A stretch of DNA of 64,000 nt from Nitrosopumilus sp. (GTDB lineage Archaea; Thermoproteota; Nitrososphaeria; Nitrososphaerales; Nitrosopumilaceae), in assembly GCA_965197525.1 (NCBI GenBank), contig OZ240211.1, positions 512,001-576,000 on the forward strand, read 5' to 3'. The translations under genes and the position numbers were made by a program. This document shows, one piece after another, positions 4,420-57,330 of the stretch. The notes below the pieces were generated by a model. That model did not search any database, had not been told where the DNA came from, and saw only the letters and a program-made list of their open reading frames with translations. How positions within the stretch are numbered: the stretch's first letter is position 1; every line of letters starts with the position of its first letter.

Positions 4420-4797
4420 GGTTCTGTTGGGTTATCGAGATCTAAAACATAGAAATAAATACTTTTAATCATTACCATAATCATTGAACAGCACGAACAC
4501 GCAATATCCAGGATGCGGAAAGAAACTCCAAGAGGATATTATGCAACAACATCATAAATTATCGTGTACTAATTGTGGATTGTTCATTGATATGAACGCA
4601 TCTCACAAGCTGTCCCCTAGGTTTAGGGATAGTAGAGATGACATACATGAAGCGCAGTCTGGCACTTTTGAGTCAGCAATGTCGGAACCCAGCACACCGT
4701 CGGTAATCCGAATAGTCGATATGTCAAAGTCAGGTTATATGGAGAGGAACTTTGTTAATACACAACAAATTTCAGGTCTCGATAACCCAACAGAACC
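4420..4797 (+). mobile_element. Family-1 MITE (378 bp): IS6-like TIRs around tnpB 3' end (Zn finger, RuvC-III region, putative omega-RNA)
   Basis: Perfect 21-bp TIR GGTTCTGTTGGGTTATCGAGA (4420-4440 / 4777-4797). Interior translates to the TnpB C-terminus (YPGCGKKLQED...CTNCG...PRFRDSRDD). No TSD. Confidence 0.9.
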
Positions 4798-16373: not shown

Positions 16374-17660
16374 GGTTTTGTGAAGTTATCGGGAGTTATA
16401 TGTCATCCCTAAAATGTATAAACCTCTGAACCGTAAGATATTCGTTGAGAGCGATAAAGTCAATATCACAGAAATATGCGCAAAACTCTGATCTAATGGA
16501 TATGATGGCTATATTCACAAAGATGGTCAATCATTGCATCAAGATAGGGTTGAAAGAAGACACTCACAATATGAAGAGGTTGTCCATGTTATGTTATCAT
16601 GAATTACGTAACTATGGCATTTTATCAACATACAAGATATGTGCAATATCAAGAGCTGCAGGCATATTATCAAACAGAAAACAATCAATCAAACGAGGTG
16701 TCAGAATAAGAGACCCAATAGTCAAAAATCCCTTTATGACAAACTGTTACGGCATAAAACACAACGGTGCACTACTAACAATCCCATACAAGAAACATAA
16801 CCCAATCAGCATTTTACTCAACGATCACACCCAAAAAATCCTATCTGATCCCGCCTTGACGGTGCGCTCGTTTTCATTGACTGCTCTCAACATCAGTCTT
16901 TGTGTTTCAAAAACAGTACAAGAGATAGAGTGCACCAAGAAGGTGGGAATAGACAGAAACCTAAGAAATGTGACGTGTGGGGACGAGGAAGAGGTGACAG
17001 TCTACAAGACAAACAAACTGTTATCCATAAAGGAGAACACAATACACGCCAGGGCAGGCTTCCACAGAAATGATCGCAGGAAGAAAAATCAGTTCTACAA
17101 GGAAAAACAGAGAAGACTGACTAACAGAGCAAAGCAGTACATCCACAGAATCTCAAAGGATATAGTAGACAACGCAGTCAAAAACAAGACTGCAATCGTC
17201 ATGGAAAACCTGAAAGGAATAAGAAAATTGTACCGAAAAGGAAACACTCAAGGTAACAAGTACAGACGTAGATTGAACGGGTGGCAATTCTACGAGTTAC
17301 AACGCCAAATAGAATACAAAGCCCAATGGGTCGGACTACCTCCAGTCGAGACAGTAGACCCAAGAAACACGAGCACGCAGTGTCCACAATGCGGAAAGAG
17401 ACTCCAAGAGGACATGCAACAACATCGTAAATTGTCGTGTAATAATTGCGGTTTGTTTATGGACAGGGACATCATCGCTGCCATGAACATATCACGCAAA
17501 CTGCCCCCTAGGTTTAGGGGTAGTAGAGGTGACATAGATGAAGCACAGTCCGGCACTTTTGAGCAGGCGATGACGGAACCCAGCACACCATTGGTAATCC
17601 GAATAGTCGATATGTCAAAGTCGAGTTATAGGGGTTAACTCCCGATAACTTCACAGAACC
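16374..17660 (+). mobile_element. Family-1 element copy A (1287 bp): tnpB between IS6-like 25-bp TIRs
   Basis: Left GGTTTTGTGAAGTTATCGGGAGTTA (16374-16398), right end reverse complement GGTTCTGTGAAGTTATCGGGAGTTA (17636-17660). Same length as copy B. No 8-bp TSD. Confidence 0.92.
16445..17638 (+). CDS. tnpB: TnpB RNA-guided endonuclease (397 aa), catalytic residues intact
   Basis: RuvC-I VGIDRN, RuvC-II IVMENL, CPQC/CNNC Zn finger, RuvC-III DRDIIAAMNI. Stop codon lies inside the right TIR. Confidence 0.95.
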   Translation: MRAIKSISQKYAQNSDLMDMMAIFTKMVNHCIKIGLKEDTHNMKRLSMLCYHELRNYGILSTYKICAISRAAGILSNRKQSIKRGVRIRDPIVKNPFMTNCYGIKHNGALLTIPYKKHNPISILLNDHTQKILSDPALTVRSFSLTALNISLCVSKTVQEIECTKKVGIDRNLRNVTCGDEEEVTVYKTNKLLSIKENTIHARAGFHRNDRRKKNQFYKEKQRRLTNRAKQYIHRISKDIVDNAVKNKTAIVMENLKGIRKLYRKGNTQGNKYRRRLNGWQFYELQRQIEYKAQWVGLPPVETVDPRNTSTQCPQCGKRLQEDMQQHRKLSCNNCGLFMDRDIIAAMNISRKLPPRFRGSRGDIDEAQSGTFEQAMTEPSTPLVIRIVDMSKSSYRG

Positions 17661-24778: not shown

Positions 24779-26187
24779 GGTTCTGTCTAATCATAGTGAG
24801 ATAAAATCTAAACTCCGAAAAAAAGTTTTGTTGTAATATTAACAAAGTGTCTTTTTCCCATCAGTTGACTTTGACATATCGACTATTTGGATTACCGGTG
24901 TACAGGGTTCCAACATCGCTAACTCAAAAACATTAGACTTCGCTTCACTTATGCCAACTCTACTATCCCTAAACCTAGGGGACAGTTTGTGAGGTATATT
25001 TATAGCAGCAATAACGTCTCTGTCCATAAACAACCCACAATTATTGCACGACTTTTTACGATGGTGTTGCAAGTCCTCTTGGAGTTTCTTTCCGCATCTT
25101 GGACATTGCGAGCTCGTGTTTTTTGGGTCTACAAATTTTACTGGAAGCCCTACCCATTGGGCTTTGTATTGTATTTGTCTTTGAAATTCAAAGAATTGCC
25201 ATCCGTTTAATCTACGTCTGTACTTGTTACCTTGACCATTGCCTTTCTTGTATAATTTTCTTATTCCTTTTAGATCTTCTAGAATAATCATGGTTTTGTT
25301 TTTGACTGCTCGTTCTACAATATCTTTTGAGATTCTATGTATGTATTGTTTGGTTCTTTGAGACATTCTTCTCTGCTTTATCTTCCAGAACTGATCTTTC
25401 TTTCTACGGTCATTTCTATGAAATCCAGCTCTAGCGTGTATTGTATTTTCTTTAATTGATAGTAATTTATTTGTCTTGTATACTATAACTTTTTTCTCAT
25501 TCCCACAAGTGACATTTCTAAGATTTCTGTCTAATTCCTACCGGTACATTAGTACATTCTATTTCTTCAACTTTTTTTGAAACACAAAAACTGATACTTT
25601 TTTCATTCATAATAAATGATCTTATATTTAAATCAGGATTAGATAGTATTTTTTGAGTGTGATCATTTAATAATATGTTTATGGGGTTTCTATTTTTGTA
25701 TGGTATTGTCATTAAACTACCATTATGTTTGATACCATAACAATTTGTAATAAATAACTTTTTTACAACTAGGTCTCTTACTGTAACACCACGCTTTATT
25801 GACTGTTTTCTGTTAGATAGTATGCCAACAGCACGTGATATTGCATTTATTTTATATGAACCTAAAACATCATAGTCTCTAAATTCATGATAACAAAGTG
25901 GAGACAACTGTTTCAAACTATGTACGTCTTCTCTTAACCCTATTCTAATGGAACGATTTACCATTTTTATGAATATCTCCATCAACTCTTTTAGATCAGA
26001 ATTTGGTGTATGTTTCTGTGTTATTGATTTTAATGCCTTCATACTACTAGAACATGTTTTATTTTTTTAATAAAGGTACTTTTTTTGAAATTATTTTTAT
26101 TCTTTGCCACTTGATAATCCAATAAAACCATTATTTGTTATTGTAAATCTAGATAAAAATTTATCTCCCTATAAATAGACAGAACAC
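24779..26187 (-). mobile_element. Family-1 element copy C (1409 bp) with 8-bp TSD TGTATAGG
   Basis: TSD at 24771-24778 and 26188-26195. Ends GGTTCTGTCTAATCATAGTGAGATAAA vs G[T]GTTCTGTCTATTTATAGGGAGATAAA. Confidence 0.9.
24839..26042 (-). pseudogene. tnpB: tnpB split by a +1 frameshift at RuvC-I
   Basis: ORFs 25518-26042 and 24839-25366 join via GTAGGAAT[T]AGACAGAAAT (extra base near 25533). Removing it restores VGIDRNLRNVTCG. Confidence 0.9.
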
Positions 26188-33531: not shown

Positions 33532-33580
33532 TTATTAATAATATACGCTTTAAGATTATAACTTTTGTTAATTAAAAAAA

Positions 33581-35217
33581 GGGAATTACATACTTGGATT
33601 ACATTATACGCCACTTATTTATAATACACCGATTATTAACTGGATGGAAAAAGAAATAGGAGATTTTATTTATAGAACAGTGATTGTAAAACCAAGGCAG
33701 ACAAAAGAACTGTCATTGAAGGCACGCAGGATTGCAAACTTTCAGACGTATTTTTTCAACATGGACGTAGAGGCAGGACTGGTTGAAAAATATGACAAAA
33801 TCAAGACAAGCCGTACCATTACTGACATACATCACACCATGCCATGGAGCAACAAATACCACACCAATGTGGCAACAACTGCGTTCCAACAGGGGCATGA
33901 TACGGCAGACAAACATTTGAAATCTTGCGCAAAAAAACGTAGGGTACGAAACTGGGCAAAAAAGACTGGCGGTAAGAACCACAACTGGCACACATCATTT
34001 AAAAATCTCAAACCAAACAAATGGATTGACAGAAACAGTTTGTTCAGAAACGCCAAAAATGCAAAACATGCATCCATAACAGTAAACGGTCAGAATCCCT
34101 CGCTAAGGATGGGAAAGTGGAAAAAACTGTACATGAACCTGCCCGGTATGGGCCAGGTGGAGCTGTTGTCGTCTTTGAAGAGTCTTCCAAAGCAACTGGT
34201 ATGTGAAAGAGACAAAAACAATACCAACAAGTTCTACCAGACCAACATTGTGTCATACAGGCTTGTAGAGAACACCAAAAAAATCACTGTCAATACAAAC
34301 GATTCGAACCGCACGTTTGAGATCCATCTGACACTAAAAATACAGAGACCTAAAAATACGGATCGTGCAGTCGTATGCGGAATAGACATGGGAGTTAGGA
34401 AATCCCTGGTAGTTCATGACGGAATAAACACCGATTTTTACAGGACGCCTTATACCTGTAGGAGAAAAAAAGATGATGTGATCTCAAAACAACAGTCAAA
34501 AAGAGACGGTTACAAACTGCATAGTAACAGATGGAAACAAAATGATCGTAAATTGAAGAAGATGGAAAAAACACTCAGCAACAGAAGAACCGAGCACAAT
34601 AATTTCCTTGCCAAACAGATTGTGATGAGAACAGGAGTAATAGTCATGGAAAAACTAAACATTGGCAATATGACTGCAAAAAATGAAAAGTGGAAAAGCG
34701 GCCTTAACAGGGAGATTTACGGGGCAGGTATGGGAAGAATGGGAAAGAGAATAAAAATGACTGCCGAAAACCATGGAACCAAAACGCTTGAGATTGTTCC
34801 ACATTACACCAGCATAACGTGTAGTAGGTGCAATATGATCAACTGTGACTCTAGAACTACAAGGGATGTGTTTCAATGCGTATACTGTGGATTTCTGTGC
34901 GATGCAGACGATAACGCAGGCGCAAACATCAGACATTACGGACTTCCGTGCATACGAAGGCTCCCGCTTGTAGACAGATATGGAAACTACAGGTATGACA
35001 GCATGGAAAATATTATTTTAGCTAATAAAAATGGCACATCTAATAGTGTCAGTGTTATTAGTGGCGGTAGGGATTATCGTCACAAGACAGAAGAATCAAA
35101 ACATGGCTTACACCATGTTGTTTCTAAAAAAGACGGCAAGAACCAAGCTGTGAATGATTTGTTGGACTGTCAGAAAAAAACCTTGGTGCAGAAACGTAAC
35201 CTAGGTATATAATTCCC
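33581..35217 (+). mobile_element. Family-2 element (1637 bp): tnpB between 17-bp TIRs with 8-bp TSD TAAAAAAA
   Basis: Left GGGAATTACATACTTGG, right reverse complement GGGAATTATATACCTAG (14/17). TSD at 33573-33580 and 35218-35225. The same ends recur at 50158-50543. Confidence 0.9.
33644..35212 (+). CDS. tnpB: TnpB/Cas12f-like RuvC nuclease (522 aa), catalytic residues intact
   Basis: CGIDMG, IVMEKL, CSRC/CVYC, DADDNAGANI. Stop codon lies inside the right TIR. Confidence 0.93.
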   Translation: MEKEIGDFIYRTVIVKPRQTKELSLKARRIANFQTYFFNMDVEAGLVEKYDKIKTSRTITDIHHTMPWSNKYHTNVATTAFQQGHDTADKHLKSCAKKRRVRNWAKKTGGKNHNWHTSFKNLKPNKWIDRNSLFRNAKNAKHASITVNGQNPSLRMGKWKKLYMNLPGMGQVELLSSLKSLPKQLVCERDKNNTNKFYQTNIVSYRLVENTKKITVNTNDSNRTFEIHLTLKIQRPKNTDRAVVCGIDMGVRKSLVVHDGINTDFYRTPYTCRRKKDDVISKQQSKRDGYKLHSNRWKQNDRKLKKMEKTLSNRRTEHNNFLAKQIVMRTGVIVMEKLNIGNMTAKNEKWKSGLNREIYGAGMGRMGKRIKMTAENHGTKTLEIVPHYTSITCSRCNMINCDSRTTRDVFQCVYCGFLCDADDNAGANIRHYGLPCIRRLPLVDRYGNYRYDSMENIILANKNGTSNSVSVISGGRDYRHKTEESKHGLHHVVSKKDGKNQAVNDLLDCQKKTLVQKRNLGI

Positions 35218-35234
35218 TAAAAAAAAATAATGTA

Positions 35235-36811: not shown

Positions 36812-37199
36812 GGTTCTGTGAAGTTATAGAGACCTGAAACATGGATGAATAAATATCGTTAATTATATCATAATTATGTTGAATCCAACAAACACGAACA
36901 CGCAATGTCCAGGATGCGGAAAGATATTCCAAGAGGACATGCAATACAGACGTAAAATATCGTGTACCAATTGTGGATTGTTCATGAACAGCAACAACAT
37001 TGTCATGAACACATCTCACAAGCTGTCCCCTAGATTTAGGGATAGTAGAGGTGACATACATGAAGCACAGACTAACACTTTTGAGTTAGCAATGTCGGAA
37101 CCCAGTACACAGGTAATCCGAATAGTCGATATGTCAAAGTCAAGTAATAGGAGAAACACACCTTGGTAAATCAACGGGTACCTATAACTTCACAGAACC
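36812..37199 (+). mobile_element. Family-1 MITE (388 bp), same subfamily as 4420-4797
   Basis: Perfect 18-bp TIR GGTTCTGTGAAGTTATAG. Interior is the tnpB 3' end (CPGC...CTNC...PRFRDSRGD). No TSD. Confidence 0.9.
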
Positions 37200-55435: not shown

Positions 55436-55477
55436 AAAGAAATTTCAGAGAAGGGTGGTTTAAAGGAAATGATCTAT

Positions 55478-56764
55478 GGTTCTGTGAAGTTATCAGGAGT
55501 TAACCCCTATAACTCGACTTTGACATATCGACTATTCGGATTACCAATGGTGTGCTGGGTTCCGTCATCGCAGGCTCAAAAGTGCCAGACTGTGCTTCAC
55601 ATATGTCACCTCTACTACCCCTAAACCTAGGGGGCAGTTTGCGTGATATGTTCATGGCAGCGATAATATCCCTATCCATAAACAAACCGCAATTATTACA
55701 CGACAATTTACGATGTTGTTGCATGTCCTCTTGGAGTCTCTTTCCGCATTGTGGACACTGCGTGCTCGTGTTTCTTGGGTCTACTATCTCGACTGGAGGT
55801 AGTCCGACCCATTGGGCTTTGTATTCTATTTGGCGTTGTAACTCGTAGAATTGCCACCCGTTCAATCTACGTCTGTACTTGTTACCTTGAGTGTTTCCTT
55901 TTCGGTACAATTTTCTTATTCCTTTCAGGTTTTCCATGACGATTGCAGTCTTGTTTTTGACTGCGTTGTCTACTATATCCTTTGAGATTCTGTGGATGTA
56001 CTGCTTTGCTCTGTTAGTCAGTCTTCTCTGTTTTTCCTTGTAGAACTGATTTTTCTTCCTGCGATCATTTCTGTGGAAGCCTGCCCTGGCGTGTATTGTG
56101 TTCTCCTTTATGGATAACAGTTTGTTTGTCTTGTAGACTGTCACCTCTTTCTCGTTCCCGCACGTCACATTTCTTAGGTTTCTGTCTATTCCCACTTTCT
56201 TGGTGCACTCTATCTCTTGTACTGTTTTTGAAACACAAAGACTGATGTTCAGAGCAGTCAATGAAAACGAGCGCACCGTCAAGGCAGGATCAGATAGGAT
56301 TTTTTGGGTGTGATCGTTGAGTAAAATGTTGATTGGGTTATGTTTCTTGTATGGGATTGTTAATAGTGCACCGTTGTGTTTTATGCCGTAACAGTTTGTC
56401 ATAAAGGGATTTTTGACTATTGGGTCTCTTATTCTGACACCTCGTTTGATTGATTGTTTTCTGTTTGATAATATGCCTGCAGCTCTTGATATTGCACATA
56501 TCTTGTATGTTGATAAAATGCCATAGTTACGTAATTCATGATAACATAACATGGACAACCTCTTCATATTGTGAGTGTCTTCTTTCAACCCTATCTTGAT
56601 GCAATGATTGACCATCTTTGTGAATATATCCATCATATCCATTAGATCAGAGTTCGGCGTATATTTCTGTGATATTGACTTTATCGCTTTCAACGAATAT
56701 CTTACGGTTTAGAGGTTATACATTTTAGGAATTGACATATAACTCACGATAACTTGACAGAACC
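55478..56764 (-). mobile_element. Family-1 element copy B (1287 bp) with 8-bp TSD TGATCTAT
   Basis: 25-bp TIRs GGTTCTGTGAAGTTATCAGGAGTTA / GGTTCTGTCAAGTTATCGTGAGTTA. TSD at 55470-55477 and 56765-56772. Confidence 0.95.
55500..56693 (-). CDS. tnpB: TnpB RNA-guided endonuclease (397 aa), near-identical to copy A
   Basis: Same RuvC-I/II/III and Zn-finger motifs. Only a few substitutions vs 16445-17638. Confidence 0.95.
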   Translation of the reverse strand: MKAIKSISQKYTPNSDLMDMMDIFTKMVNHCIKIGLKEDTHNMKRLSMLCYHELRNYGILSTYKICAISRAAGILSNRKQSIKRGVRIRDPIVKNPFMTNCYGIKHNGALLTIPYKKHNPINILLNDHTQKILSDPALTVRSFSLTALNISLCVSKTVQEIECTKKVGIDRNLRNVTCGNEKEVTVYKTNKLLSIKENTIHARAGFHRNDRRKKNQFYKEKQRRLTNRAKQYIHRISKDIVDNAVKNKTAIVMENLKGIRKLYRKGNTQGNKYRRRLNGWQFYELQRQIEYKAQWVGLPPVEIVDPRNTSTQCPQCGKRLQEDMQQHRKLSCNNCGLFMDRDIIAAMNISRKLPPRFRGSRGDICEAQSGTFEPAMTEPSTPLVIRIVDMSKSSYRG

Positions 56765-56836
56765 TGATCTATCAAATTTTACAATTATAGAGAAAAAGAT
56801 GATCGTTTTGCAGTACAGTCTATTTGTTTTATACGA

Positions 56837-57187
56837 TTACAAAGTATTTTTATTGATAAAGAGATTCAGCATTGTTCTTCCTCTTTCCGTTAACTCGTAC
56901 ATTACATTTAGCCCTCTTGATTCCTTTCTAATAAAATTGTAATCTACACATAAATGCAGGTAATTTAAAAACGATCTCTTCATTCGAATCTTTGATTTTT
57001 GATACAAATCACTAAATGTCATAGGGCTTGTTTTAAGCTGATACAGCAATTTCAACAATGACAGTGTGCTATAATCCCTCGTCTTTGCCTTTATTGCATC
57101 AAGGATTTGCTCATCTTTTTTGATTATGAAATCGTCGAATTGCTCTGCCACATCTAGCGGGAGATATGTCAATCTTGCTTTTGGCAT
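56837..57187 (-). CDS. Winged-HTH DNA-binding protein
   Basis: MTFSDLYQKSK...FLNYL...YELTERG. Confidence 0.8.
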   Translation of the reverse strand: MPKARLTYLPLDVAEQFDDFIIKKDEQILDAIKAKTRDYSTLSLLKLLYQLKTSPMTFSDLYQKSKIRMKRSFLNYLHLCVDYNFIRKESRGLNVMYELTERGRTMLNLFINKNTL

Positions 57188-57330
57188 ACCGTATAGTACG
57201 GTACTATACCTTATTAATCTTTAGTTGTGTGGCAGCAGGATAGATAATTTAACGTTTCACTAAAAAAGATTAATGCGCGTATGCCAGAGTCAAAGTATAT
57301 AGTAGTTAATAGAATGAATCAGCGTAACAC

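Follow-up and report, generated by a model that had tools for sequence, protein, structure and literature searches.

Introduction

The accepted benefit of TnpB to its carrier is that it restores transposons that excise without leaving a scar. This benefit accounts for the ties of TnpB to IS605 and IS607 elements and for its rarity in elements moved by DDE transposases. The main text of Altae-Tran et al. (2023, PMC10691335) describes six DDE-associated TnpB branches (DDE-1 to DDE-6) with inverted terminal repeats, reports solo TnpBs whose ends are nearly identical and which presumably depend on mobilization in trans, and draws the parallel to Fanzor for IS630-linked TnpBs. A 2026 review names ISL2, IS630 and IS1031 as the DDE partners (PMC13565253). 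According to the same review, prokaryotic omegaRNAs form a pseudoknot with their own 3' end, and in Fanzor elements the TAM is taken to include the 5' duplication, while the 3' duplication lies in the RNA scaffold (PMC13565253). The IS6 family has the consensus end GGTTCTGTTGCAAA (PMC6807381) and makes 8-bp duplications (PMC7986276); reviews of the family list a single member carrying a passenger gene, and no member carrying tnpB (PMC6807381, PMC7986276). Full-text literature searches for TnpB linked to IS6 or to Nitrosopumilus insertion sequences returned nothing.

Here we analyze a tnpB element in a 64,000-nucleotide stretch of a Nitrosopumilus genome (the window; all coordinates refer to it). 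The original prediction, made from the DNA letters, took the arrangement of a tnpB inside a DDE-type element to be undescribed. That view has to be given up, since the main text of the 2023 paper already contains DDE-linked TnpBs and solo copies presumed to move in trans (PMC10691335). The element itself is probably a non-autonomous DDE-type, IS6-like transposon whose sole cargo is a working OMEGA module (TnpB plus omegaRNA).

Results

Structure of the element and its copies in the genome

The host genome is a single contig of 2.21 Mb with 39.6% G+C and is 99% complete. The element under study (copy B, 55470-56772) consists of a 1287-bp unit (55478-56764) between two copies of the 8-mer TGATCTAT. 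Its parts are as follows.

55470 to 55477, no strand: target-site duplication TGATCTAT on the tnpB 3' side, single copy in the empty site of related strains
55478 to 55502, minus strand: inverted repeat at the tnpB 3' end; its tip GGTTC (GAACC in RNA) is the proposed omegaRNA pseudoknot strand
55500 to 56693, minus strand: tnpB, 397 aa, with RuvC D-E-D and zinc ribbon intact (Pfam, NCBIfam, alignment, dN/dS)
56740 to 56764, minus strand: inverted repeat at the tnpB 5' end
56765 to 56772, no strand: target-site duplication TGATCTAT on the tnpB 5' side

The inverted repeats are 25 bp long and start with GGTTCTGT. In copy B 22 of their 25 positions agree, in most of its sister copies all 25. The window contains nine occurrences of the end motif, where shuffles give an expectation of 0.36. 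The first eight bases of the ends are identical to the IS6 consensus GGTTCTGTTGCAAA and the rest diverges; the ends and the 8-bp duplications are typical of IS6 (PMC6807381, PMC7986276), as had been stated from the letters. That tnpB is the sole gene between 25-bp repeats was also correctly read, the only long open reading frame being the 397-aa frame on the minus strand. Relatives of the protein and of the locus are found in Nitrosopumilus and other Nitrososphaerota.

We found about 36 full-length tnpB loci in the genome (16 at 93-100% identity and about 20 further ones at 76-88%) and about 12 miniature derivatives. Exact, differing 8-bp duplications, the length typical of IS6, flank 26 copies. 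When elements ending in GGTTCTG and carrying exact 8-bp duplications are counted, there are 29 with no two duplication sequences alike, and copy C is one more. The duplication is missing at eight of 26 full-length copies. The following copies lie in the window.

16374 to 17660, plus strand: copy A, 1287 bp, 98% identical to copy B, tnpB intact
24779 to 26187, minus strand: copy C, diverged subfamily, 78% aa identity, frameshifted
4420 to 4797, plus strand: miniature derivative of 378 bp with both inverted repeats, the last ~90 tnpB codons and the RNA scaffold
36812 to 37199, plus strand: miniature derivative of 388 bp from another subfamily, of the same make-up

Copy A has the same length as copy B and is nearly identical to it, in agreement with the original prediction. 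It has no duplication (flanks TTTGAAAA and AAAAGAAT) and retains TTA on the 5' side. The exact 8-bp duplications claimed for copies B and C are both present (TGATCTAT and TGTATAGG, respectively); in copy C, too, the 5' side has TTA.

Another tnpB-only element, unrelated to copy B, is located at 33580-35218. It encodes a 522-aa TnpB (33644-35212, plus strand) between inverted repeats of about 27 bp (NGGGAATTAYATAC). Other 1639-bp copies and a 388-bp miniature of it are present in the genome, with exact 6-bp duplications (AAAAAA, ATTCAA, GATTTA, TTAACA). The 6-bp length points to a different DDE-type carrier.

Empty site and insertion unit

Logan contigs from runs X4 and X5 (related strains with flanks about 95% identical) join position 55469 straight to 56765. 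The joint skips 1295 bases (1287 + 8) and the eight letters fit either side, so the empty site holds one TGATCTAT and no inverted repeat. Inverted repeats that were already present before insertion would have told against the original prediction; they are absent from the X4/X5 site, and the search for further duplication-flanked copies returned the 26 described above. This empty site and 26 copies that have different exact duplications show that insertion involves the entire unit from one inverted repeat to the other and makes an 8-bp duplication.

No paralogous empty site spanning a junction was found within the genome. Flank identity to other species of the genus is only about 70%, too low for a base-level comparison of empty sites. 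Run X1, which is probably the source sample, gave no empty-site joint; contigs drop rare variants, and the run is thus silent on excision. The stretch 56848-57223, which contains the 116-aa open reading frame adjoining the element, is inverted relative to the left-hand flanking gene in all species-level relatives, while the closely related strains of runs X4 and X5 share the arrangement of the window.

In a sister genome (Nitrosopumilus MAG, OZ245003.1) a pair of copies in inverted orientation, some 126 kb from each other (L051 and L054), has reciprocally exchanged the flanking 8-mers (TAGAAACT and TTATGTTA). Such an exchange marks an inversion through recombination between the copies, a process that therefore erases duplications. 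The duplication-less copies and the L051/L054 exchange are both compatible with between-copy recombination. Inspection by eye found no reciprocal flank partners among the duplication-less copies of the genome studied here.

TnpB is conserved under purifying selection

The 397-aa protein matches Pfam Cas12f1-like_TNB (9.5e-21), PF07282 (74 bits, cut-off 26) and NCBIfam guided_TnpB (123 bits, cut-off 100). Its nearest solved relatives are Cas12f and ISDra2 TnpB. An alignment of 14 proteins shows no variation at D170, E254 and D342 or at the four zinc-ribbon cysteines; the RuvC D/E/D triad had been read as intact from copy B. Thirty-two tnpB paralogues have an intact frame. In the gene body, comparison of their diverged subfamilies gives a median dN/dS of 0.094, and by this measure of sequence divergence TnpB is shown to be kept under purifying selection and not to be dead cargo. 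In the last 75 codons dS falls threefold (1.08 to 0.35) and dN is unchanged, which suggests that a second constraint acts on that stretch. Homologues of the protein are annotated under the IS200/IS605 (IS1341) name. The clade comprises proteins from Nitrososphaerota and Bathyarchaeia and one example from Thermoplasmatota.

OmegaRNA-like scaffold and predicted guide

Two RNA features were assigned at the tnpB 3' end.

55478 to 55640, minus strand: omegaRNA-like scaffold overlapping the tnpB 3' end, from covariation, reduced synonymous rate and retention in miniatures
55458 to 55477, minus strand: predicted guide template (duplication plus flank), from the reach of the pseudoknot and the position of the TTR motif

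RNAalifold predicted a hairpin of 8 bp (55615-55637) with the loop GGUUU (55623-55627), and a long-range helix of 7 bp in which 55602-55608 pairs with 55521-55527. Across 71 non-redundant relatives, 96% of the cells in the two helices are paired. They score 0.82 for covariation; 500 shuffles gave 0.24 +/- 0.014, and sliding the partners gave 0.08-0.18. In relatives with as little as 36% protein identity the blocks GGUAAUCC and AGUCGAU are still unchanged. Conservation of the last ~160 nt, as judged from the alignments, is far in excess of what the protein needs, and the miniature derivatives retain exactly the 3' RNA part of tnpB.

The hairpin loop (GGUUY) is complementary to the last five bases of the element (GAACC), with four or five of five pairs in 71/71 sequences. 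Among five changed tips, three are accompanied by a matching change in the loop (AGUUC/GAACU, GGUUA/UAACC and GGCUU/GAGCC). It is likely from this pattern that the loop and the inverted-repeat tip form a pseudoknot. Such a pseudoknot reaches the last base of the inverted repeat, so the scaffold would end there and the guide would lie in the flank. The alignments show that a conserved, covarying RNA fold covers the last ~160 nt up to the inverted-repeat tip; Rfam contains no family matching it. We predict that the duplication at 55470 to 55477 provides the first 8 nt of the guide, and propose that the inverted-repeat tip doubles as transposase site and omegaRNA pseudoknot strand.

Sponge metatranscriptome contigs (run X6) cover the element, with the summed depth highest over the last ~350 nt (55478-55900), and some of them continue into other flanks. 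This depth cannot rank the parts of the gene, miniatures share the region and DNA carry-over is possible, and we did not count it as evidence. The cover hints at expression and at a sponge-associated habitat.

A one-sided TTR motif precedes the duplication

We oriented the insertion sites by tnpB and scored the three bases before the 5'-side duplication. Copy B has the following motif.

56773 to 56775, minus strand: TAM-like motif TTG (caa on the plus strand), directly before the duplication on the tnpB sense strand

W-T-R was found in this position in 40 of 42 duplication-flanked copies from several archaeal phyla: 26/26 in this genome, 7/9 in other genomes and 7/7 on metagenome contigs (43-65% identity). 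On the tnpB sense strand these insertions start exactly 8 bp after W-T-R. Those from other genomes include an element from Bathyarchaeota whose TnpB is 43% identical and which has the same ends, duplication and TTG. In a subset of 21 sites, T is present at -2 and R at -1 in all 21, and T at -3 in 16. The mirror side carries the motif in 2/25 sites, and base composition alone would give 9%. Copies that have lost the duplication still have the motif on 36/45 of the 5' sides. The motif is found throughout the youngest family (93-100%) and at copy B, which is absent in sister strains; it was therefore set at insertion and did not arise by slow loss of other copies. The W-T-R position matches TAM geometry, making the motif a candidate TAM with the guide predicted in the opposite flank. 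The empty allele reads in the order TTR, duplication, flank, i.e., the TAM-like motif followed by the sequence of the predicted guide. In the occupied allele ACC precedes the 3' junction, and the 5' junction matches the predicted guide for only 8 nt.

In the genus, autonomous elements that bear a transposase have a one-sided TTT in 8 of 19 cases, on the 3' side of the transposase gene, though several of the 19 share one target sequence and are not independent. This one-sided motif occurs without tnpB or RNA core, and the asymmetry may thus be a property of the transposase group. In the sites compared, the terminal purine is what sets the tnpB elements apart from the autonomous ones. Two origins for TTR can be considered, namely choice by the transposase and imposition via TnpB.

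Under the first, TTR is a mere target preference of the transposase, and TnpB is selfish cargo with its guide and TAM elsewhere or unused. The autonomous elements of the same family, which show their TTT without TnpB or RNA module, favor this explanation, and orientation-specific insertion by a DDE element has been reported before, for the IS1202 family. What speaks against it is the last base of the motif, which is R in 40/42 and T in 0/42 tnpB elements and mostly T in the autonomous ones. The motif also occupies the very position required of a 5' TAM for a guide that begins at the element end, and both TnpB and the RNA are strongly constrained. We consider this explanation unlikely. Under the second origin, the TAM of the TnpB cargo would license the target choice of the DDE enzyme, either by guide-independent binding of TnpB to the TAM, which would help to place the transpososome, or through a transposase that has co-evolved to the TAM. 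This idea is speculative and we give it rather little credence. If it were true, each new copy would be born 8 bp downstream of a TTR with the target of its own guide valid.

Among the autonomous SWIM/DDE_Tnp_IS240 elements in genus relatives, eight (L106, L113-L115, L120, L129, L134 and L139) are 2.3-3.9 kb long and have varied passenger ORFs. They carry TTT just outside the 8-bp duplication and only 3' of the transposase gene, which is unusual for a DDE element. At L140:2043-11340, three transposase-bearing elements are arranged head to tail and separated each time by the identical 8-mer TGTTTCGA; their relatives in other genomes are at TGTTTTAG or CTAGAACA. These sites suggest that one preferred target is reused.

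Candidate mobilizing transposase

Copy B itself encodes TnpB alone and no DDE transposase. Searches for Y1 transposase (PF01797) and serine recombinase (PF00239) gave no match in the 99%-complete genome, and control genomes gave matches. There are eight DDE_Tnp_IS240 matches in the genome. The IS6-like transposases are 375-460 aa long with SWIM/zinc-finger N-termini and score 42-57 bits against PF13610 (cut-off 27). Among NCBIfam models they match IS6 best, along its full length, with scores of 103-121 bits that lie just below the cut-off of 125. They occur in autonomous elements with GGTTCTGT ends and 8-bp duplications, which is what the genome search proposed with the original prediction had been meant to find. 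One autonomous element of 1970 bp has perfect 30-bp GGTTCTGT repeats and the duplication CTATTGTG, and its first 18 end bases are identical to those of one tnpB subfamily. For the family 1 ends (the family of copy B) this genome contains no identical autonomous element, the best match being 15/18; a transposase-bearing element in another genome of the genus (L134) matches at 17/22. No tnpB or RNA core motif was found inside the autonomous DDE elements, and hence no combined DDE and TnpB element. Among 60 genomes of the genus, the transposase is present in two of the four others with TnpB; the two negatives are incomplete assemblies, and the TnpB-positive genomes are too few to judge co-occurrence.

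It is a well-supported inference from these comparisons that SWIM/DDE_Tnp_IS240 transposases move the tnpB elements in trans. The predicted IS6-type element moved in trans holds in its ends, its 8-bp duplications, the presence of IS6-like DDE enzymes and the missing Y1 and serine enzymes; the part that falls short is the match to the ends of family 1 (15/18). The exchange of the DDE transposase for tnpB in an IS6-type element, also part of the original prediction, is a putative evolutionary step. That missing exact end match and the weak co-occurrence across the genus are what would favor a different mover, either an unrecognized transposase or TnpB itself. Against such a mover, the combination of inverted repeats and a duplication of constant 8-bp length is the hallmark of staggered DDE strand transfer, the ends equal the IS6 consensus over eight bases, and one subfamily has 18 end bases in common with an autonomous element. 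No further candidate recombinase was seen in the genome by the PF01797 and PF00239 searches. We regard another enzyme as quite improbable.

A stretch of 5146 bp between 26-bp GGTTCTGTTAACTTACCG repeats and without duplication is found 7.7 kb past the end of the window (G000:C1:583727-588872, partly in L034). Besides a gene for an IS6-like transposase it contains several further ORFs, and it is possibly a composite element or one that carries cargo.

Discussion

An IS605/IS1341-type tnpB nested in a dead IS6 miniature, with internal hairpins as true ends and the inverted repeats as bystanders, would account for the hairpin-prone sequence just inside both ends, but it is contradicted by the empty site without inverted repeats, and it is highly improbable in view of the duplication that lies outside the repeats at each duplication-flanked copy, the genome without Y1 transposase, the repeat tip that pairs in the RNA fold with its changes compensated, and a link between repeats and tnpB that persists to 43% TnpB identity.

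For the preferred reading, an IS6-like transposon with an OMEGA module as cargo, the following cycle can be proposed. SWIM/DDE_Tnp_IS240 transposases from autonomous elements with the same type of ends would mobilize the element in trans by binding its 25-bp repeats. Transcription across the 3' repeat would yield the omegaRNA, with the duplication and the adjoining flank as guide. In the element-free allele TTR stands directly before the guide-matching sequence, and TnpB could cut this allele; recombination would then copy the element back in, as in IS605. The occupied site would be spared, with ACC before the 3' junction and a guide match of only 8 nt at the 5' junction. Several points count against this reading, among them the missing exact end partner for family 1, the one-sided TTT of the autonomous elements and the transposase missing from two of the four other TnpB-positive genomes. 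The SWIM/zinc extras of the transposases and their sub-cut-off IS6 scores (103-121 vs 125) speak against it. In addition, the IS6 members that have been studied copy in without excision (PMC7986276), leaving TnpB homing without its usual purpose.

IS6-like elements with inverted repeats are home to a large archaeal TnpB clade, with strong selection apparent on both the protein and the RNA. For these elements the routine label "IS200/IS605 accessory protein" is a misnomer. The TTR-N8 geometry would rebuild the logic of IS605, a TAM in one flank and a guide in the other, despite a variable 8-bp duplication. The element offers a concrete and testable case of an OMEGA module adapting to a DDE transposon, and TTR is a candidate short TAM for compact archaeal nucleases.

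Comparison with known systems

The serine recombinase TnpA that characterizes IS607 has no counterpart here, there being no PF00239 match in the genome. IS1341 elements (IS200/IS605) resemble the element in having tnpB as the sole gene and an omegaRNA that overlaps the 3' end of the gene, with the TAM (a candidate here) in the 5' flank and the guide (predicted here) in the 3' flank. They differ in that they are Y1-dependent and have no inverted repeats or duplication, whereas the element described here has both and its genome has no Y1 transposase.

With IS6/IS26 the element shares the GGTTCTGT ends, the 8-bp duplication, the DDE_Tnp_IS240 domain of the partner and the occurrence of miniature derivatives. 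It differs by lacking its own transposase and by repeats of 25 bp instead of the 14-20 bp in IS6. The partner transposases differ too, as they are 375-460 aa long, carry SWIM/zinc-finger N-termini and stay just under the NCBIfam IS6 cut-off.

Fanzor elements likewise place an RNA-guided nuclease of the TnpB type in inverted-repeat, duplication-making transposons. Unlike in Fanzor, the duplication here would form the first 8 nt of the target, the TAM would lie upstream of it and the 3'-end pseudoknot is seemingly retained.

The TnpBs of DDE-1 to DDE-6, as presented in the main text of the 2023 paper, are alike in lying within an inverted-repeat transposon with the tnpB 3' end near the transposon end, and in having solo copies presumed to be moved in trans. 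The partners named in that main text are IS630, ISL2 and IS1031 and not IS6, and an overlap with one of its branches is possible. Compared with the DDE-1 to DDE-6 systems as given there, the transposase is never inside the element here, and the 8-bp duplication is of any sequence with the TAM-like motif outside it. The IS6-like partner, the TTR-N8 geometry, the dual-use repeat tip and the spread across archaeal phyla appear to be new.
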